From an uncultured Acidimicrobiaceae bacterium (GTDB lineage Bacteria; Actinomycetota; Acidimicrobiia; Acidimicrobiales; Ilumatobacteraceae): DNA of 46,707 bases. The translations under genes were made by a program, and so were the position numbers. Shown here one piece after another: positions 37,267 to 43,201 of the stretch. The stretch's first letter is position 1, and every line of letters starts with the position of its first letter. Under the pieces are notes generated by a model. It had not been told where the DNA came from, searched no databases, and saw nothing but the letters and a program-made list of their open reading frames with translations. The stretch is from assembly GCA_903904615.1 (NCBI GenBank), contig CAIVDG010000242.1:1-46707 (forward strand). Direction: 5' to 3'.

Positions 37267-37326
37267 CTGACTAGTTTGCCACCGAAGACACCATCACCGT
37301 GCCTACGCAGGTACCCTCACAGGGTC

Positions 37327-37400
37327 GCCGGTGTAGCCCAATTGGCAGAGGCAGCAGGTTTAGGTCCTGCGTGTTGGGGGTTCGAGTCCCTTCACCGGCA
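37327..37400 (+). tRNA. tRNA with anticodon UAG (Leu codons CUA/CUG) but class I geometry (5-nt variable loop); no encoded CCA
   Basis: Hand fold:
- Acceptor stem GCCGGTG / CACCGGC.
- U8.
- D stem GCC/GGC, with a loop containing GG.
- Anticodon stem GCAGG/CCTGC, loop TT-TAG-GT.
- Variable loop GTGTT.
- T stem GGGGG/CCCTT (two G-U pairs), T loop TTCGAGT.
- Discriminator A at 37400. Confidence 0.8.
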
Positions 37401-37402
37401 CA

Positions 37403-38419
37403 GTGCATATTTACGACTTACCCACGCCAGCTGTCGTTATCGACATTGCTGCTTTGCGCAAGAACATTGCCACCATGGCCGAGGTGCACCCAGGTCGTCG
37501 CTTGCGTCCACACATTAAGGCGCACAAATGCACAGGTCTTGCTGCCGAGCTAGAAGCCGTTGGTCACACCTCGTTCACATGTGCCACCCCGCGCGAAATT
37601 CTTGGAATGGTTGCCGCAGGCGTTGGCAACGATTTCTTGCTGGCAAATGAAGTAGTCGACCCTCGTCGCCTTGACGCACTGGCAGAAGCGCAAGAACATG
37701 CGTTAATCACCGTTGCTATTGATTCAGAAGAAACCTTGAAGGCAGCCGAGAAGGCCGGCATTCAACACGTGATGATCGATGTGAACGTTGGTCTCCCCCG
37801 TTGTGGATGTGACCCAAAGAATGCTGGCCGCCTGGCCGATGCCGCTCGCGTGCGTGGCATGACAGTTCGTGGAGTCATGGGTTACGAAGGGCATCTCATG
37901 ATGGTGACCGACCGTGACGAAAAGAAACGCAAAGTCCACGACGCAATGTCCATCCTTGCCACCGCGCACGACGACGTTGGTGGCGACATTGTGTCGGCTG
38001 GTGGAACCGGCACATACGACATGTTCGCGGGAACCACCGTGAACGAAGTGCAAGCAGGAAGTTATGCACTCATGGATACCCACTACGCACAACTTGGTTT
38101 GCCATTTGTCCAGGCAATGTGGGTGGTCGGCACGGTTGTTTCATCAAACGAATCGTGGTCAGTAGTAGACGTTGGTTTGAAATCTCTCGGAATGGACCAT
38201 GGCAGCCCCACTATCTCGGGTCATTCCGTGTGGTTCTGCTCCGACGAACACATCACCTTTTCACCACAAGACGAAACACCACGCCCCATTGTGGGCGACA
38301 GAGCATTTGTTACTCCTTCGCACATCGATCCCACCATGGCCATGCACGACACTGCGTATGTTGCTAATTCTTTCGGAGAGATTCTGGCCGAGTGGCCCAT
38401 TGATTTACGCGGGTGGTAA
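37403..38419 (+). CDS. DSD1-family PLP enzyme (D-threonine aldolase / D-serine dehydratase-like; alanine racemase N-terminal fold)
   Basis: LPTPAVVIDIAALRKNI...LRPHIKAHKC (PLP lysine), GVMGYEGH, VSAGGTGTY, VQAGSYALMD, C-terminal SHIDPT. The conserved N-terminus forces the start to GTG 37403, 2 nt after the tRNA. Confidence 0.8.
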   Translation: MHIYDLPTPAVVIDIAALRKNIATMAEVHPGRRLRPHIKAHKCTGLAAELEAVGHTSFTCATPREILGMVAAGVGNDFLLANEVVDPRRLDALAEAQEHALITVAIDSEETLKAAEKAGIQHVMIDVNVGLPRCGCDPKNAGRLADAARVRGMTVRGVMGYEGHLMMVTDRDEKKRKVHDAMSILATAHDDVGGDIVSAGGTGTYDMFAGTTVNEVQAGSYALMDTHYAQLGLPFVQAMWVVGTVVSSNESWSVVDVGLKSLGMDHGSPTISGHSVWFCSDEHITFSPQDETPRPIVGDRAFVTPSHIDPTMAMHDTAYVANSFGEILAEWPIDLRGW

Positions 38420-38998
38420 TCCCACAATGCGTGCCAGCAGGGCGGGTAGTTCACGCAACGCTCGCCCCCTGTGAGAGAGAGCATCTTTTTCTTCTGCCGT
38501 CATCTCGGCAAACGTTCGACCATCGCCATCGTTCGGAACAAAAAGGCTGTCGTAACCAAACCCATTATTTCCGCGCTCACTAGTGGCGATAGTTCCTTCA
38601 CATTCGCCCGCGACAAAATGCATTTCGCCCAACCTGTTCACTACAGCAAGAACAGTCCTGAATCGCGCCGACCGATGAGTGTTTCCCTCGAGAGTGCGTA
38701 GCAATAACTGCCGATTCTGCACATCAGTTGCATGGTCTCCGGCATAACGCGCGCTTCGCACGCCTGGCTCGCCACTTAACGCATCGACAAGTAACCCGGT
38801 GTCATCGGCGAGCGCCCATTCGTGTGCAAAGTTGGCTATCTCTACTGCTTTAATGGCGGCATTGCCTTCAAGCGTGGGTGCGTTCTCTTCAACATCGCCC
38901 ACTTCGTGTGGTCGTGGCAGAAGTTCCACCCATTCAGGCAACAATCGCGCAATTTCCGCGACCTTCTTCGGGTTCGCGCTCGCACACACGAGTCGCAT
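38405..38998 (-). CDS. rdgB: Non-canonical purine NTP pyrophosphatase (RdgB/HAM1)
   Basis: MRLVCASANPKKVAEI..., ADDTGLLVDALSGEPGVRSARYAG, NGFGYDSLFVP, SHRGRAL. Lies 5 nt downstream of rph (conserved pair). Its 3' end overlaps the convergent DSD1 gene by 15 nt. Confidence 0.9.
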   Translation of the reverse strand: MRLVCASANPKKVAEIARLLPEWVELLPRPHEVGDVEENAPTLEGNAAIKAVEIANFAHEWALADDTGLLVDALSGEPGVRSARYAGDHATDVQNRQLLLRTLEGNTHRSARFRTVLAVVNRLGEMHFVAGECEGTIATSERGNNGFGYDSLFVPNDGDGRTFAEMTAEEKDALSHRGRALRELPALLARIVGLPPA

Positions 38999-39003
38999 TG
39001 TTG

Positions 39004-39765
39004 TTATCGCTCGGGAAGTCGAGCAGGTGGCGCCTCGGACAACAAGCCTGATTGAAGATCAAAGATTCGACCAAGTCCGGTGTCGGCCAACATCAGCAAC
39101 TCATCTAGTTCGCCACGCGTGAACGCCATACCTTCGGCAGTTCCTTGCACTTCAACAAATCGTGACTCTCCGCCATTGACAGGTCGCAACATCACAACGT
39201 TCATGTCCACTTCGGCAGTTGAGTCTTCAACATAGGGAAGATCGAGCACCGGAACGCCGCCACACACGCCAACAGAAATTGCAGCGCAGAGCGAATGAAG
39301 TGGGTGCTGAGGAATTGAGCCATTTTGAACAAGCCGAGTCAGTGCATCGTGCAAAGCGAGATAGCCACCGCAAATGCTCGCAGTGCGAGTGCCACCATCT
39401 GCCTGCAATACATCGCAGTCCACCAATACTTGACGTTCACCCAAAGCGCGCATGTCGCATGTGGCGCGCAACGAACGGCCAATGAGTCGTTGAATTTCAA
39501 CGGTGCGACCACTTTGCTTGCCCTTTGCAGCTTCTCTGTCAACACGCTCGGGTGACGACCCAGGAAGCATTGAGTACTCCGCAGTGACCCATCCTTTGCC
39601 TGAGCCCTTCATCCAACGTGGAACATCTTCATCAACCGACGCGGTGCACAAAACACGTGTGCGCCCAAATGTGACCAGCACAGAACCAGCGGACATTTCT
39701 GTGAAGTCACGTTGAAATGACATTGGTCGTAGCTGATCTGGTGTGCGTCCGTCTGGGCGACTCAT
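39004..39765 (-). CDS. rph: Ribonuclease PH
   Basis: [44 protein letters not shown]...[20 protein letters not shown]...[16 protein letters not shown]. Start ATG 39765 with GGAGG 8 nt upstream. Confidence 0.95.
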
Positions 39766-39855
39766 GATGATTTCCTCCGCACCGCCGACATTCGACATAT
39801 GTGCGCTTCCCACAATACGCAGTGAGCGCCCCCAACAGGCGTAGCGTCAATCACC

Positions 39856-40680
39856 GTGCTCACCGCAACACTCCTCGCTCTCGCCGCTGCGGTGTTGCAC
39901 GCCTCGTGGAACCTATGGGTGAAACAAAGTGGCGACAGATGGATTGCGTTGTGGGGCCAGATGACCGCGGGCGGGTTCGTCTGCGCTGTCATCTTGATCT
40001 TCACCGGCTGGCCCAGCAACTTGGCATGGTGGCCGGTGCTCACCAGTGGCGTTATTCATGTGGTGTACATCGGTGCTCTTGCACGCGCGTACACCATTGG
40101 CGACTTCTCCGTTACCTACCCCATCGCTAGGGGCGCTGGCGCGTTGCTGGCTGCACTTGGTGGAGTTCTGTTTCTGAACGATCACTTCACTGCCCTGTCG
40201 GTTTTCGGAATTGTTATTGCAATCGCCGGAATTCTTCTGCTCGCGGGAAAGGCAGATGCATCCCATGTGAAGGCCGCGTTGTTGGTCTCGCTCACCATTG
40301 GTGCGTACTCAGTTGTTGACGGACATGGCTCTCGAGTGACGGGCGGAAACTTGTATCCACTTGTGCTGTTCGTTGCCACTGCTGTAAGCACAACAATTGC
40401 AGGTATAGCAATGGGTCGCACCCGCGACATGGTGACAGCTATGAGATCTCGCGCACATTTGTTTGCGCTTGCTGGAAGTGCTTCTGCATTGACCTATTGG
40501 ATGGTTCTCGTCGCAATGCAACAAGCACCCGTGGGCTACGTAACGGCACTTCGTGAATCGAGCGTGGTTATTGTTGCACTCATGGGGACGCGTTACTTGG
40601 GTGAATCCGACATGCGACGTCGTGTCGTTGCCGCACTCGTGGTTGTTGCGGGACTAGCAGTGCTCATCGCGGGCCGTTAG
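39856..40680 (+). CDS. EamA/DMT-superfamily transporter
   Basis: 274 aa, about 10 TM helices. The N-terminal LALAAAVLHASWNLWVKQ and the two-halves architecture are typical of EamA-domain permeases. GTG start. Confidence 0.75.
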   Translation: MLTATLLALAAAVLHASWNLWVKQSGDRWIALWGQMTAGGFVCAVILIFTGWPSNLAWWPVLTSGVIHVVYIGALARAYTIGDFSVTYPIARGAGALLAALGGVLFLNDHFTALSVFGIVIAIAGILLLAGKADASHVKAALLVSLTIGAYSVVDGHGSRVTGGNLYPLVLFVATAVSTTIAGIAMGRTRDMVTAMRSRAHLFALAGSASALTYWMVLVAMQQAPVGYVTALRESSVVIVALMGTRYLGESDMRRRVVAALVVVAGLAVLIAGR

Positions 40681-40695
40681 CGGCACGCCTCTCAT

Positions 40696-41682
40696 TTAGA
40701 AGTAAATGATCTTTTCGGCGTTTGCTTCGGCTTGATCGAGATCGTCTGTGTACGCACCGGTGGACAGATACTTCCAACCGCCGTCGCACACAATGAACAC
40801 GATGGTTCCCTCTTCAATTTCGCTTGCCACCTTCACGGCTCCGGCAAGTGATGCACCTGAAGAGATACCTGCGAAAATTCCGCACTCTTGCACGATGCGA
40901 CGAGTCCACTCGAGTGATTCGCGAGGACGAACAACGCGCTTGCGGTCGAGAAGTTCACGGCCGTGCCAGTTGTCGAACACGGGCGGGATGTAACCATCGT
41001 CCAAGTTGCGCAAACCTTCAACACGCTCACCAAGTGGTGGCTCTACAGCAATAATCTTGATGTTGGGATTCTGTTCTTTGAGGTACTTACCCGTGCCCAT
41101 AAGTGTTCCGCTTGTGCCGAGACCTGCAACGAAGTGCGTAATTTCTGGGCAATCACGATAAATCTCTGGGCCGGTGCCTTCGTAATGCGCACGTGGGTTT
41201 GCATCGTTGGCGTACTGGTACAAGAAACACCATTCAGGGTTTTGCGCTGCAAGTTCTTGCGCGCGTCGCACCGCGCCATTTGATCCTTCTTCACCGGGTG
41301 TGAGAATGATTTCAGCGCCGAAGACTTCGAGCATTTGACGACGCTCGATGCTGACCGAAGTAGGCATGAGGATGGTGATGGGATAACCCTTCATCTTCGC
41401 GATGGCAGCAAGTGCAATTCCGGTGTTGCCCGATGACGGCTCCACGATGCGCTGGCCAGGAACCAAGCGTCCGGTGCGCTCGGCATCTTCGATCATTGCT
41501 TTTGCAATGCGGTCCTTTACCGAGCCAAAGGGGTTTTGGCTTTCCAACTTCGCCACGATGCGAACATTGGGATTAGGCGACAAATTGGAGACGTCGACCA
41601 TGGGAGTGTTGCCAACGAGCTCGAGGGCGTTCTGAAGTACAAACACCGAGCCTCCGTTCCTTCTCACATCCGCAATCGACAT
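40696..41682 (-). CDS. cysM: Cysteine synthase B-type O-phosphoserine sulfhydrylase (M. tuberculosis CysM/Rv1336-like)
   Basis: LVGNTPMV..., NPFGSVKDRIA (PLP lysine), EPSSGNTGIALA, THFVAGLGTSGTLMGTG, GIFAGISSGA and C-terminal GGWKYLSTGAY all parallel Rv1336. Start ATG 41682 with AAGGAG upstream; the track extension to 41793 is rejected. Confidence 0.9.
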   Translation of the reverse strand: MSIADVRRNGGSVFVLQNALELVGNTPMVDVSNLSPNPNVRIVAKLESQNPFGSVKDRIAKAMIEDAERTGRLVPGQRIVEPSSGNTGIALAAIAKMKGYPITILMPTSVSIERRQMLEVFGAEIILTPGEEGSNGAVRRAQELAAQNPEWCFLYQYANDANPRAHYEGTGPEIYRDCPEITHFVAGLGTSGTLMGTGKYLKEQNPNIKIIAVEPPLGERVEGLRNLDDGYIPPVFDNWHGRELLDRKRVVRPRESLEWTRRIVQECGIFAGISSGASLAGAVKVASEIEEGTIVFIVCDGGWKYLSTGAYTDDLDQAEANAEKIIYF

Positions 41683-41807
41683 GGTTCTCCTTCGCGGCCT
41701 ACCAGACAGGCCTCTAGGTGAAACCTCTCCACCTTGAGTGCTATTCCCGATAAATCCAGTCGGAATTGTAACCATCGCCACAGCCATTGTCACCCCCTCT
41801 AGGGGAA

Positions 41808-42230
41808 TCAGGCGATGACGATGACTTCTTCGGTAATGGTTCCAGCCTCAATACGGAATGAGCGGGGCTTCGGCTCGCCGGTTTTCAGGCTGACAATGAT
41901 GTAGTGCCAGCCCGGATCGGGGGCCTGGTCAACGTCAGTTTTGCTGGGATAGGCCTCGGTGTGGGTGTGGCTGTGTGCGCACCCCAGCACTTCCAAGCCC
42001 TCCGCTTCGGCGGCAAGCTCGGCGCGAAGGTGCTCTTTCGGGTCAATGGTGTACACCAATGCACTGTGGGCAATGTTGGTGCATGGCACGAAACGCGTGA
42101 CCGTGGTTGACCCAGGTGCGCCAATGAGCAGACCACACATCTCTTCGGGATAACAGGCAATGGCATGCGCGGCCATGGCGCCTGCGGCCTCTTGCGGCAC
42201 CGTGAGTTGTTGCGTGACTGACTCGGACAT
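41808..42230 (-). CDS. mec: JAMM/MPN+ zinc metalloprotease (Mec, Rv1334-like)
   Basis: PEEMCGLLIG (catalytic Glu) and CAHSHTHTEAYPSKTD (the H-x-H-x(7)-S-x2-D JAMM motif). 140 aa. Confidence 0.85.
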   Translation of the reverse strand: MSESVTQQLTVPQEAAGAMAAHAIACYPEEMCGLLIGAPGSTTVTRFVPCTNIAHSALVYTIDPKEHLRAELAAEAEGLEVLGCAHSHTHTEAYPSKTDVDQAPDPGWHYIIVSLKTGEPKPRSFRIEAGTITEEVIVIA

Positions 42231-42265: not shown

Positions 42266-42742
42266 ATGGCAAAGTCACCAAACACCGTGCTGGCGAGTAA
42301 TCGCAAGGCTCGACACGATTACGAGATTCTCGACGTGTTCGAAGCCGGCATTGTGCTTGTTGGCAGCGAAGTGAAGAGCCTGCGTGCTGGCCAAGTTCAG
42401 TTAGTCGACGCCTACGCACGGATTCTCGACGGCGAGATGTGGCTAGACGGTGTCCATATTGCGCCGTATTCATTCGCTGTCGGGGTAGGCGCACACGATC
42501 CAGATCGCCCACGCAAGTTGCTGCTACATCGCGAAGAGATCAATCGTCTTCACGACCGCATTGCGCGCGAACGTTTGTCGCTGGTACCGCTGGCATTTAA
42601 GTTGGTGGACGGTCGAGTAAAGGTGGAACTCGCACTTGGTCGTGGTCGCAAGAAAGGCGACAAGCGCCAGTCAATTGCGGAAAAAGCTGTGCAGCGCGAA
42701 ATGCAACGATCGCTTGGGCGTCAACGCAAAGGTATGGAATAG
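42266..42742 (+). CDS. smpB: SsrA-binding protein
   Basis: LASNRKARHDYEILDVFEAGIVLVGSEVKSLR...LLLHREEINRL...GRGRKKGDKRQ is a canonical SmpB sequence. tmRNA lies 81 nt downstream. Confidence 0.95.
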   Translation: MAKSPNTVLASNRKARHDYEILDVFEAGIVLVGSEVKSLRAGQVQLVDAYARILDGEMWLDGVHIAPYSFAVGVGAHDPDRPRKLLLHREEINRLHDRIARERLSLVPLAFKLVDGRVKVELALGRGRKKGDKRQSIAEKAVQREMQRSLGRQRKGME

Positions 42743-42823: not shown

Positions 42824-43201
42824 GGGGCTGACAGGTTTCGACAGCAGTTTCGTTGTTTGCACGTGCAACCCGAATTGCTCAGATTCGTTAAACGGGGCAA
42901 AAAACAGAATTGCCAACGAGCAGTTCGCTCTCGCCGCCTAATACTCGGTAGAGAGACATCGTGAGCAGCAATGCCGCACGGGGCCAGTCCATCGCAGCCC
43001 GGCAACAGAAGCGGAGGATGACGGCGAGAAAGACCGCTGACAATGGGAAAGACTTTTGACTTGTGGGAAAGACCACACGCGGCTTGGGTAACCAAGTAGT
43101 CGACCCGTCGACAGTGTTGCGTTAGCGCTACAACGGGAATGGTTGTAGCACTGGTAAATAGCGCCTGATGGACGGGGGTTCGATTCCCCCCAGCTCCACC
43201 A
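42824..43201 (+). ncRNA. ssrA: tmRNA (SsrA)
   Basis: The 5' GGGGCTGACAGGTTTCGACAG pairs with the 3' CAGCTCCACCA, including the G3:U70 alanine identity pair. The T-arm is GGGGGTTCGATTCCCCCC. The tag frame ends ...GAG CAG TTC GCT CTC GCC GCC TAA (stop 42939-42941). The likely resume codon is GCA 42897, giving AKNRIANEQFALAA; an alternative is GCC 42912, giving ANEQFALAA. Confidence 0.95.

Follow-up and report, generated by a model that had tools for sequence, protein, structure and literature searches.

A likely functional tRNA-Leu(UAG) of class I shape beside rph-rdgB in Acidimicrobiia and other Actinomycetota

The window analyzed here, a 46,707-nucleotide stretch of DNA from an uncultured Acidimicrobiaceae bacterium, contains a 74-nt gene that is very probably the functional tRNA-Leu(UAG) of its lineage, built on a class I body with a short variable loop. 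The G+C content of the window is about 55%, and the nearest relatives of its proteins occur in MAGs of Ilumatobacteraceae and Acidimicrobiales. In view of the missing long arm, the preliminary description had proposed a leucine isoacceptor that lost the arm with every helix intact, a tRNA of altered identity reading CUA and CUG, or a tRNA used outside the ribosome, and had considered a pseudogene less likely. The evidence set out below favors the first of these options. We also weigh whether the gene is the only UAG isoacceptor of its genome or a spare copy.

The gene reads GCCGGTG-TA-GCC-CAATTGGCAGA-GGC-A-GCAGG-TTTAGGT-CCTGC-GTGTT-GGGGG-TTCGAGT-CCCTT-CACCGGC-A, and its parts are listed in Table 1. 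ARAGORN calls a tRNA-Leu(tag) at 37327-37401. Rfam RF00005 aligns along its whole length with a score of 54.8 bits (E = 3.6e-9; gathering score 29) and shows a class I variable region; the UAG anticodon and the short variable region on which the first reading depended are upheld. All details of the fold drawn by hand in the preliminary description are correct, namely the Watson-Crick acceptor stem, U8, G18G19, U33, G37, the TTCGAGT loop, A73, the D arm, and GTGTT. The only pairs in the molecule that are not Watson-Crick are two G-U wobbles in the T stem, G49-U65 and G50-U64. CCA is absent from the gene, and A73 is followed by CAG. The minimum-free-energy fold of the single sequence gives no clean cloverleaf (z = -2.16); we judged the structure by the covariance model and by covariation, not by that fold. 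Class I tRNA-Leu of Actinomycetota are cloverleaf tRNAs with a variable loop of 4 to 5 nt, a leucine anticodon, and a Leu-type D arm like that of recognized class I Leu tRNAs, and the window tRNA, with its loop of 5 nt, agrees with them on each point. A canonical class II tRNA-Leu, which needs a long variable arm (at least 10 nt, with a hairpin), was rejected as an assignment because GTGTT is all that the molecule has at this place.

Table 1. Positions of the tRNA gene, its parts, neighboring features, and class II counterparts (window coordinates unless a locus is named)
Feature	Position	Strand	Basis or remark
GTACCCT block, candidate -10 element	37311..37317	+	9-10 nt upstream of mature 5' end
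tRNA-Leu(UAG) gene, class I shape, 74 nt, CCA unencoded	37327..37400	+	ARAGORN, Rfam RF00005, synteny, covariation
Acceptor stem, 5' strand GCCGGTG	37327..37333	+	Partner CACCGGC at 37393-37399
D arm GCC-CAATTGGCAGA-GGC	37336..37352	+	3-bp stem, 11-nt loop; A14, A15, G18, G19, A20a
Anticodon arm GCAGG-TTTAGGT-CCTGC	37354..37370	+	Anticodon TAG at 37361-37363; U33, G37
Variable loop GTGTT, 5 nt	37371..37375	+	U48 at 37375 able to form A15-U48 Levitt pair
T arm GGGGG-TTCGAGT-CCCTT	37376..37392	+	Two G-U wobbles; 3/5 pairs covary
Discriminator A73	37400	+	Invariant in 46/46 distinct sequences; outside search pattern
D-serine deaminase-like PLP enzyme ORF	37403..38419	+	ORF list; Pfam PF01168 and PF14031 on homologues
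rdgB (38405-38998) and rph (39004-39813)	38405..39813	-	Pfam PF01725 and PF01138 on relatives; PDB RNase PH matches
Mycobacterium tuberculosis class II tRNA-Leu(UAG)	L254 15974-16058		4.5 kb downstream of rdgB, past mbt-2 genes
Mycolicibacterium grossiae class II tRNA-Leu(UAG)	L255 14247-14330		
Rhodococcus rhodnii class II tRNA-Leu(UAG)	L257 12297-12381	-	<1 kb from rdgB, convergent with rdgB as in window

We examined how this gene is conserved in other organisms in two ways. First, syntenic loci were gathered through homologues of the downstream protein, ranging from 94% to 70% identity. Every fetched relative whose locus includes the intergenic region has a 74-nt tRNA(UAG) at the same site, between a divergent 511-aa PALP-family gene and a D-serine-deaminase-like gene. 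Second, a single scan of GTDB species representatives, which required the window D arm, the UAG loop, and class I spacing, matched at least 120 genomes. Among the matches listed are Ilumatobacteraceae (including the cultured Ilumatobacter nonamiensis), Iamiaceae, and other Acidimicrobiales, together with Nakamurella, Jatrophihabitans, Catellatospora, and many Pseudonocardiaceae, namely Lentzea, Saccharopolyspora, Amycolatopsis, Kutzneria, Prauserella, Actinopolyspora, Kibdelosporangium, and Saccharomonospora. Every match listed is a 74-nt class I tRNA, and 44 distinct sequences occur among them. Because the pattern fixed the D arm and the anticodon loop, this distribution is a lower bound, and conservation of the D arm in the sample is not independent evidence; the remaining stems, the variable loop, and position 73 were left free.

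Across 46 distinct sequences, 99.9% of the stem cells are paired, and compensatory changes affecting both partners occur in 14 of the 20 pairs. Covariation scores 0.564 in the alignment and 0.129 in shuffled versions, with none of 500 shuffles as high; sliding the partners by one to three columns lowers pairing to 35-55%. In the acceptor stem, six of seven pairs have changed on both sides, with 99.7% of cells paired, and all five pairs of the anticodon stem covary. The anticodon loop is invariant, but it was fixed by the search pattern. U54, U55, C56, and A58 of the T arm are also invariant. The variable loop is 5 nt long in all 46 members, and its sequence follows lineage: GTGTT or ATGTT in the clade of the window and mainly CCAGT or TCAGT elsewhere. 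The tRNA is well formed, goes well beyond what chance would produce, is under strong structural selection, and is widespread in Actinomycetota. The comparison of orthologous intergenic regions that the preliminary description had recommended finds intact helices with compensatory changes in relatives.

Some loci in this collection call for comment on their assembly. The contig CAZRHK010000020.1 (L212), labelled uncultured Bifidobacterium sp., encodes proteins 73-99% identical to those of the window, and JBBQJC010000026.1 (L160), labelled Gemmatimonadales, has rdgB-rph at Nakamurella-like identity. Both carry a window-type or Nakamurella-type tRNA and synteny, and they look like actinobacterial contigs mis-binned in their MAGs. 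In the Ilumatobacteraceae MAG JAHEKY01 (Ww598), the same tRNA stands at the ends of two contigs (L149 and L199). One contig continues with rdgB-rph and the other with the PALP genes, a pattern that suggests a break in the assembly at the tRNA rather than a duplicated gene.

The neighborhood of the gene links it to a class II tRNA of the same anticodon. In the window, the tRNA(+) is followed by the D-serine-deaminase-like gene(+), rdgB(-), and rph(-) and then by genes for an EamA protein, CysM, and a JAB/Mec protein. The distance from the class I tRNA to rdgB(-rph) is 0.2 to 5 kb in Acidimicrobiia, Nakamurella, Kutzneria sp. 744, and Saccharomonospora. Mycobacterial homologues and their loci were retrieved with the M. 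tuberculosis RNase PH sequence from PDB 3b4t as the query. These mycobacterial-type loci keep the block JAB-ThiS-CysM-rhomboid-(MurI)-lactamase_B-rph-rdgB, and three of the four have a class II tRNA-Leu(UAG) of 84 to 85 nt downstream of rdgB (Table 1); the exception is the Nocardia locus, with no tRNA inside 10 kb. Class I and class II lineages do not have the same genes in the interval from rdgB to the tRNA. DUF3817 and a small hypothetical gene, which stand in this interval in Mycobacteriales, are missing from the class I loci, so the shared anchor is rph-rdgB(-murI) alone. Since the window tRNA stands beside rph-rdgB, the site of class II tRNA-Leu(UAG) elsewhere, it would be the positional orthologue of the class II gene, an assignment drawn from the neighborhood, with flanks that are not identical.

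Other features of the region may be recorded here. The mec(JAB)-cysM-...-rph-rdgB block is kept between Acidimicrobiia and Mycobacteriales (window positions 38405-42230 compared with L254-L257), and murI, found between rph and the EamA gene in most relatives, is missing from the window. A tmRNA gene at 42824-43201 (+), scoring 116.9 bits in Rfam, lies directly downstream of smpB at 42266-42742 (+); its tag peptide, ANEQFALAA, is the same in the relatives L001 to L004.

Two possibilities may be considered for the role of such a gene among the tRNAs of its genome. Given the positional counterpart of the class I gene and the mycobacterial tRNA tables, which list one gene apiece for the Leu anticodons (PMC11541572 supplement), the genomes that carry the class I gene probably have no other UAG isoacceptor, as judged from synteny. 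Alternatively, it could be a functional but redundant leucine tRNA, with a class II tRNA-Leu(UAG) elsewhere in the genome doing most of the CUA decoding. There are mycobacteria in which a cluster-encoded, short-loop tRNA-Leu(TAG) accompanies the long-loop one (PMC6582537), and acquisition of further copies is possible, since phage contigs often carry class I Leu-like tRNAs. Yet the gene resides in a conserved core locus by rph-rdgB and not in a tRNA array or mobile element, and this locus is the very site of the class II tRNA-Leu(UAG) in M. tuberculosis, Mycolicibacterium, and Rhodococcus. The mycobacterial tables have a single gene per Leu anticodon. Conservation and covariation over two classes of the phylum fit an indispensable gene better than a spare. 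We consider redundancy unlikely.

Whether the tRNA carries leucine can be approached from the molecule and from the codon that it would read. The bacterial leucine determinants comprise A73, the A15-U48 Levitt pair, G18G19, A20a, U8:A14, and D/T-loop pairs including U54:A58; in Escherichia coli, A73 is the main determinant and the long arm is dispensable (PMC9976931), while A73 is less critical for Streptomyces LeuRS (Fan et al., PMC6614811). The complete set is present in the window tRNA and invariant in the 46 sequences, including A73 and U48, which the search pattern left free. Over the segment from U8 to A26, the window tRNA matches the class I Leu(UAA) of M. tuberculosis at 20 of 20 positions and the class I Leu(CAA) at 17 of 20; the best non-leucine tRNA reaches 16 of 20. 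Compared over the whole molecule, the closest M. tuberculosis tRNAs are class II Leu(UAG) (56/74), Leu(CAG) (55/74), and His (54/74). The whole-molecule nearest neighbor does not discriminate well; the D arm and the identity positions do. The leuS gene is absent from the window.

The codon CTA is rare but used, accounting for 54 of the 14,616 codons in the ORFs of the window. In orthologues from five relatives, leucine stands opposite window CTA sites in 79 of 93 cells (85%), and the other five leucine codons align with leucine in 77-90%. The non-leucine residues at CTA sites are I, Q, V, M, A, and F, with none enriched. The CTA sites of rph and rdgB align with leucine in 13 of 15 cells in Mycobacteriales, which carry the class II tRNA-Leu(UAG), and both CTA codons of rph (residues 28 and 236) coincide with leucines that the RNase PH structures of Pseudomonas aeruginosa, Bacillus subtilis, and M. 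tuberculosis share. Judged by these alignments, an indirect line of evidence, CUA is leucine in the genome of the window, and the genetic code is unchanged. If CUA means leucine, any tRNA(UAG) active in translation must carry leucine.

These results bear directly on the proposal of altered identity, in which the tRNA would place another amino acid at CUA/CUG, like the tRNA-Thr(UAG) of yeast mitochondria or the tRNA-Ala(UAG) of Ashbya. Its class I shape is atypical among bacterial tRNA-Leu, it resembles M. tuberculosis tRNA-His fairly closely, and a descent from tRNA-His has been stated for the yeast mitochondrial tRNA-Thr(UAG) (PMC7609411). However, CTA aligns with leucine as often as the other leucine codons do, including at universally conserved leucines of RNase PH, and the full leucine identity set is invariant. 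The anticodon loop has the normal 7 nt, the third acceptor pair is C3-G70 and not G3:U70, and the marks of histidine are missing, since position -1 is C instead of G-1 and position 73 is A instead of C73. A reassigned CUN decoder, recognizable by an 8-nt anticodon loop or G3:U70 together with non-leucine CUN sites, was likewise considered and discarded, none of these features being found. Altered identity is thus very improbable, and that option of the preliminary description finds no support.

The suggestion that the tRNA is used off the ribosome, for example as an aminoacyl donor for cell wall, lipid, or natural-product enzymes, fares no better, and we regard it as highly unlikely. Some bacteria retain dedicated tRNA isoacceptors for non-ribosomal aminoacyl-transfer pathways, and the flanking genes here encode amino-acid-metabolizing PLP enzymes. 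Yet the Pfam families found at the syntenic loci are PALP, Pro_CA, ClpP, Ala_racemase_N/D-ser_dehydrat, Ham1p, RNase PH, EamA, JAB, and SmpB. No Fem-type, MprF-type, cyclodipeptide-synthase, or LanB-type gene, and no other Pfam family of tRNA-dependent transferases, occurs within about 20 kb of these loci, although lack of linkage does not exclude such a use. The tRNA stays in place while the genes around it change between lineages, and U33, G37, and the T loop, which ribosomal use requires, are invariant. Moreover, the CUA codons in use need some decoder. Finally, decay into a pseudogene is scarcely credible and was rejected, in line with the preliminary description: no support for it was found, and it is at odds with the near-complete pairing and frequent compensation in the 46 sequences, the invariant loops and tertiary positions, and the retention of the gene at one locus across two classes of the phylum.

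The functional tRNA-Leu(UAG) that we favor would need to be transcribed, processed, and charged, and the steps proposed here draw on sequence features and on the cited work on other tRNA-Leu species. A scan for sigma-70 consensus sequences found no promoter upstream of the tRNA. The GTACCCT block (Table 1) is nevertheless invariant in six relatives, in an intergenic region that has otherwise diverged, and TACCCT fits TANNNT; the alignment thus points to this box as a putative promoter. In the window and in the relatives L001, L002, L004, L008, and L010, the D-serine-deaminase-like ORF starts with GTG or ATG 2 nt past A73 (A73-C-N-RTG). This spacing suggests a tRNA-mRNA co-transcript, from which 3' processing of the tRNA would free a nearly leaderless mRNA. 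Another conserved block of the otherwise diverged intergenic region, AGTTTGCCACC, lies at 37273-37283. Read on the minus strand as GGTGGCAAACT, it is 7 to 17 nt upstream of the GTG start (37266) of the 511-aa PALP gene and so is probably the ribosome-binding region of that gene.

The tRNA would be transcribed from its own promoter, probably at the TACCCT box, possibly together with the downstream ORF. RNase P would cut its 5' end, and, because CCA is unencoded, the 3' end would have to be trimmed and CCA put on by the CCA-adding enzyme. The G36-G37 context predicts methylation by TrmD to m1G37. A single LeuRS may then leucylate the tRNA through A73 and the D/T-loop core (U8:A14, A15-U48, G18G19, A20a), for which the long arm would be unneeded. 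The charged tRNA would read CUA on the ribosome, and CUG by wobble.

Two routes to the class I body fit our results: loss of the arm in place, or copying or gene conversion from a class I leucine paralogue such as that for UAA or CAA. The D arm common to M. tuberculosis Leu(UAA) and to the class I UAG genes of two classes favors a shared class I body. Arm loss is compatible with the anticodon arm CCAGGTTTAGGTCCTGG, which the Rhodococcus class II gene and the L004 class I gene have in common, and with the GTGTT loop when set beside the UG-hairpin-GU context of class II. The isoacceptor that has the class I form varies: it is CAA in Streptomyces, CAA and UAA in Mycobacterium, and UAG in the lineage of the window. 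A bolder scenario, which we hold to be improbable, is that in a large part of Actinomycetota (Acidimicrobiia, Nakamurellales, and Pseudonocardiales) the class II gene was replaced at its own site by a class I tRNA-Leu on which all CUA decoding now depends, and that selection instead of neutral drift could lie behind repeated class switches of this kind. If true, the selected advantage might be, for example, escape from toxins or defense nucleases that recognize the long variable arm.

For annotation, the gene should be named tRNA-Leu(UAG), and a short variable loop is no reason to flag an actinobacterial tRNA-Leu as aberrant. The list of bacterial class I tRNA-Leu gains a third isoacceptor, UAG, as well as Acidimicrobiia and the Pseudonocardiales/Nakamurella group. 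The rph-rdgB synteny provides a clean case of class I and class II forms of one isoacceptor in the same neighborhood, and so the co-evolution of LeuRS with arm loss becomes testable in the culturable Lentzea, Saccharopolyspora, and Ilumatobacter nonamiensis.

Similar tRNAs also occur in viruses. IMG/VR viral contigs (L014-L133) gave at least 120 matches to a Leu-type D loop with an NAR anticodon and class I spacing, an example being IMGVR_UViG_3300025617_000018 (L020). Among the viral matches listed, the anticodons are TAG (50), CAA (33), TAA (25), AAG (4), GAA (4), GAG (3), and CAG (3), and nearly all are called tRNA-Leu by ARAGORN. Their D arms are of two types, GCCCAATTGGYAGAGGC, shared with the window, and GGCGNAATTGGYAGACGC, shared with class II Leu. 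Among GenBank phages, matches come from 37 Streptomyces and 33 Mycobacterium phage records and from Myxococcus phage Mx1, whose annotated tRNA-Leu of 72 nt shares 79% identity with the window tRNA.

Class I tRNA-Leu as a kind is already known. The preliminary description was right that such a molecule is unusual for bacteria generally; as applied to Actinobacteria, the anomaly was overstated (PMC6614811, PMC11541572 supplement), and the window tRNA is ordinary for Actinomycetota. In a full-text literature search, no account came up of a class I tRNA-Leu(UAG) encoded on the chromosome of Acidimicrobiia or Pseudonocardiales, and the combination of UAG with these lineages, together with the relation to the class II gene, appears to be undescribed.

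A close precedent comes from Streptomyces coelicolor, where a lone type I tRNA-Leu(CAA), with a variable loop of 5 nt, stands beside four type II isoacceptors, UAG among them, and both types are charged by the one LeuRS of the organism (Fan et al., NAR 2019, PMC6614811). Charging of the type I tRNA depends on the length and not the sequence of the loop and needs the leucine-specific domain of LeuRS, and not all actinobacterial LeuRS are capable of it, since that of Streptomyces purpurogeneiscleroticus fails on type I tRNA-Leu (PMC6614811). Like the window tRNA, the S. coelicolor tRNA-Leu(CAA) is an actinobacterial tRNA-Leu with a loop of 5 nt. In contrast, it reads UUG and has the loop ACAGC with C48, whereas the family described here has the UAG anticodon and U48, and the UAG isoacceptor of S. 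coelicolor belongs to class II.

In M. tuberculosis and Mycobacterium smegmatis, class I comprises the CAA and UAA isoacceptors, each of 74 nt, and class II those for CAG, GAG, and UAG (PMC11541572 supplement, tRNAscan); the main text of that study gives long loops for Leu-2, -3, and -5 only (PMC11541572). The mycobacterial Leu(UAA) and Leu(CAA) resemble the window tRNA in their 74 nt, 5-nt loops (CAAGT and CCAGT), and A73, and the U8-A26 segment of the M. tuberculosis Leu(UAA) gene, TAGCCCAATTGGCAGAGGCA, is exactly that of the window. They differ in reading UUR, and the mycobacterial UAG isoacceptor, 84 to 87 nt long and located at rph-rdgB, is class II. Both the anticodon and the missing arm recur in the tRNA-Leu(TAG) with a short variable loop reported from a mycobacterial tRNA cluster (Behra et al., BMC Evol Biol 2019, PMC6582537). 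That gene belongs to an accessory tRNA array and exists beside a long-armed isoacceptor, whereas the window gene is a lone tRNA in a conserved core locus.

Beyond bacteria, human mt-tRNA-Leu(UUR) is also class I and is recognized through A73 and A14 without a long arm (PMC9976931). Mitochondrial tRNA-Leu are, however, organellar molecules, often weakened in structure and served by a dedicated mitochondrial LeuRS, unlike the window tRNA with its fully canonical D/T-loop core. The class II tRNA-Leu(UAG) of M. tuberculosis and Rhodococcus rhodnii shares with the window tRNA the UUUAGGU loop, A73, the D arm of 3 bp and 11 nt, and the genomic neighborhood. It is set apart by a variable arm of 13 to 15 nt and by a D stem GCG/CGC with G9 and G26, where the window tRNA has GCC/GGC, A9, and A26.
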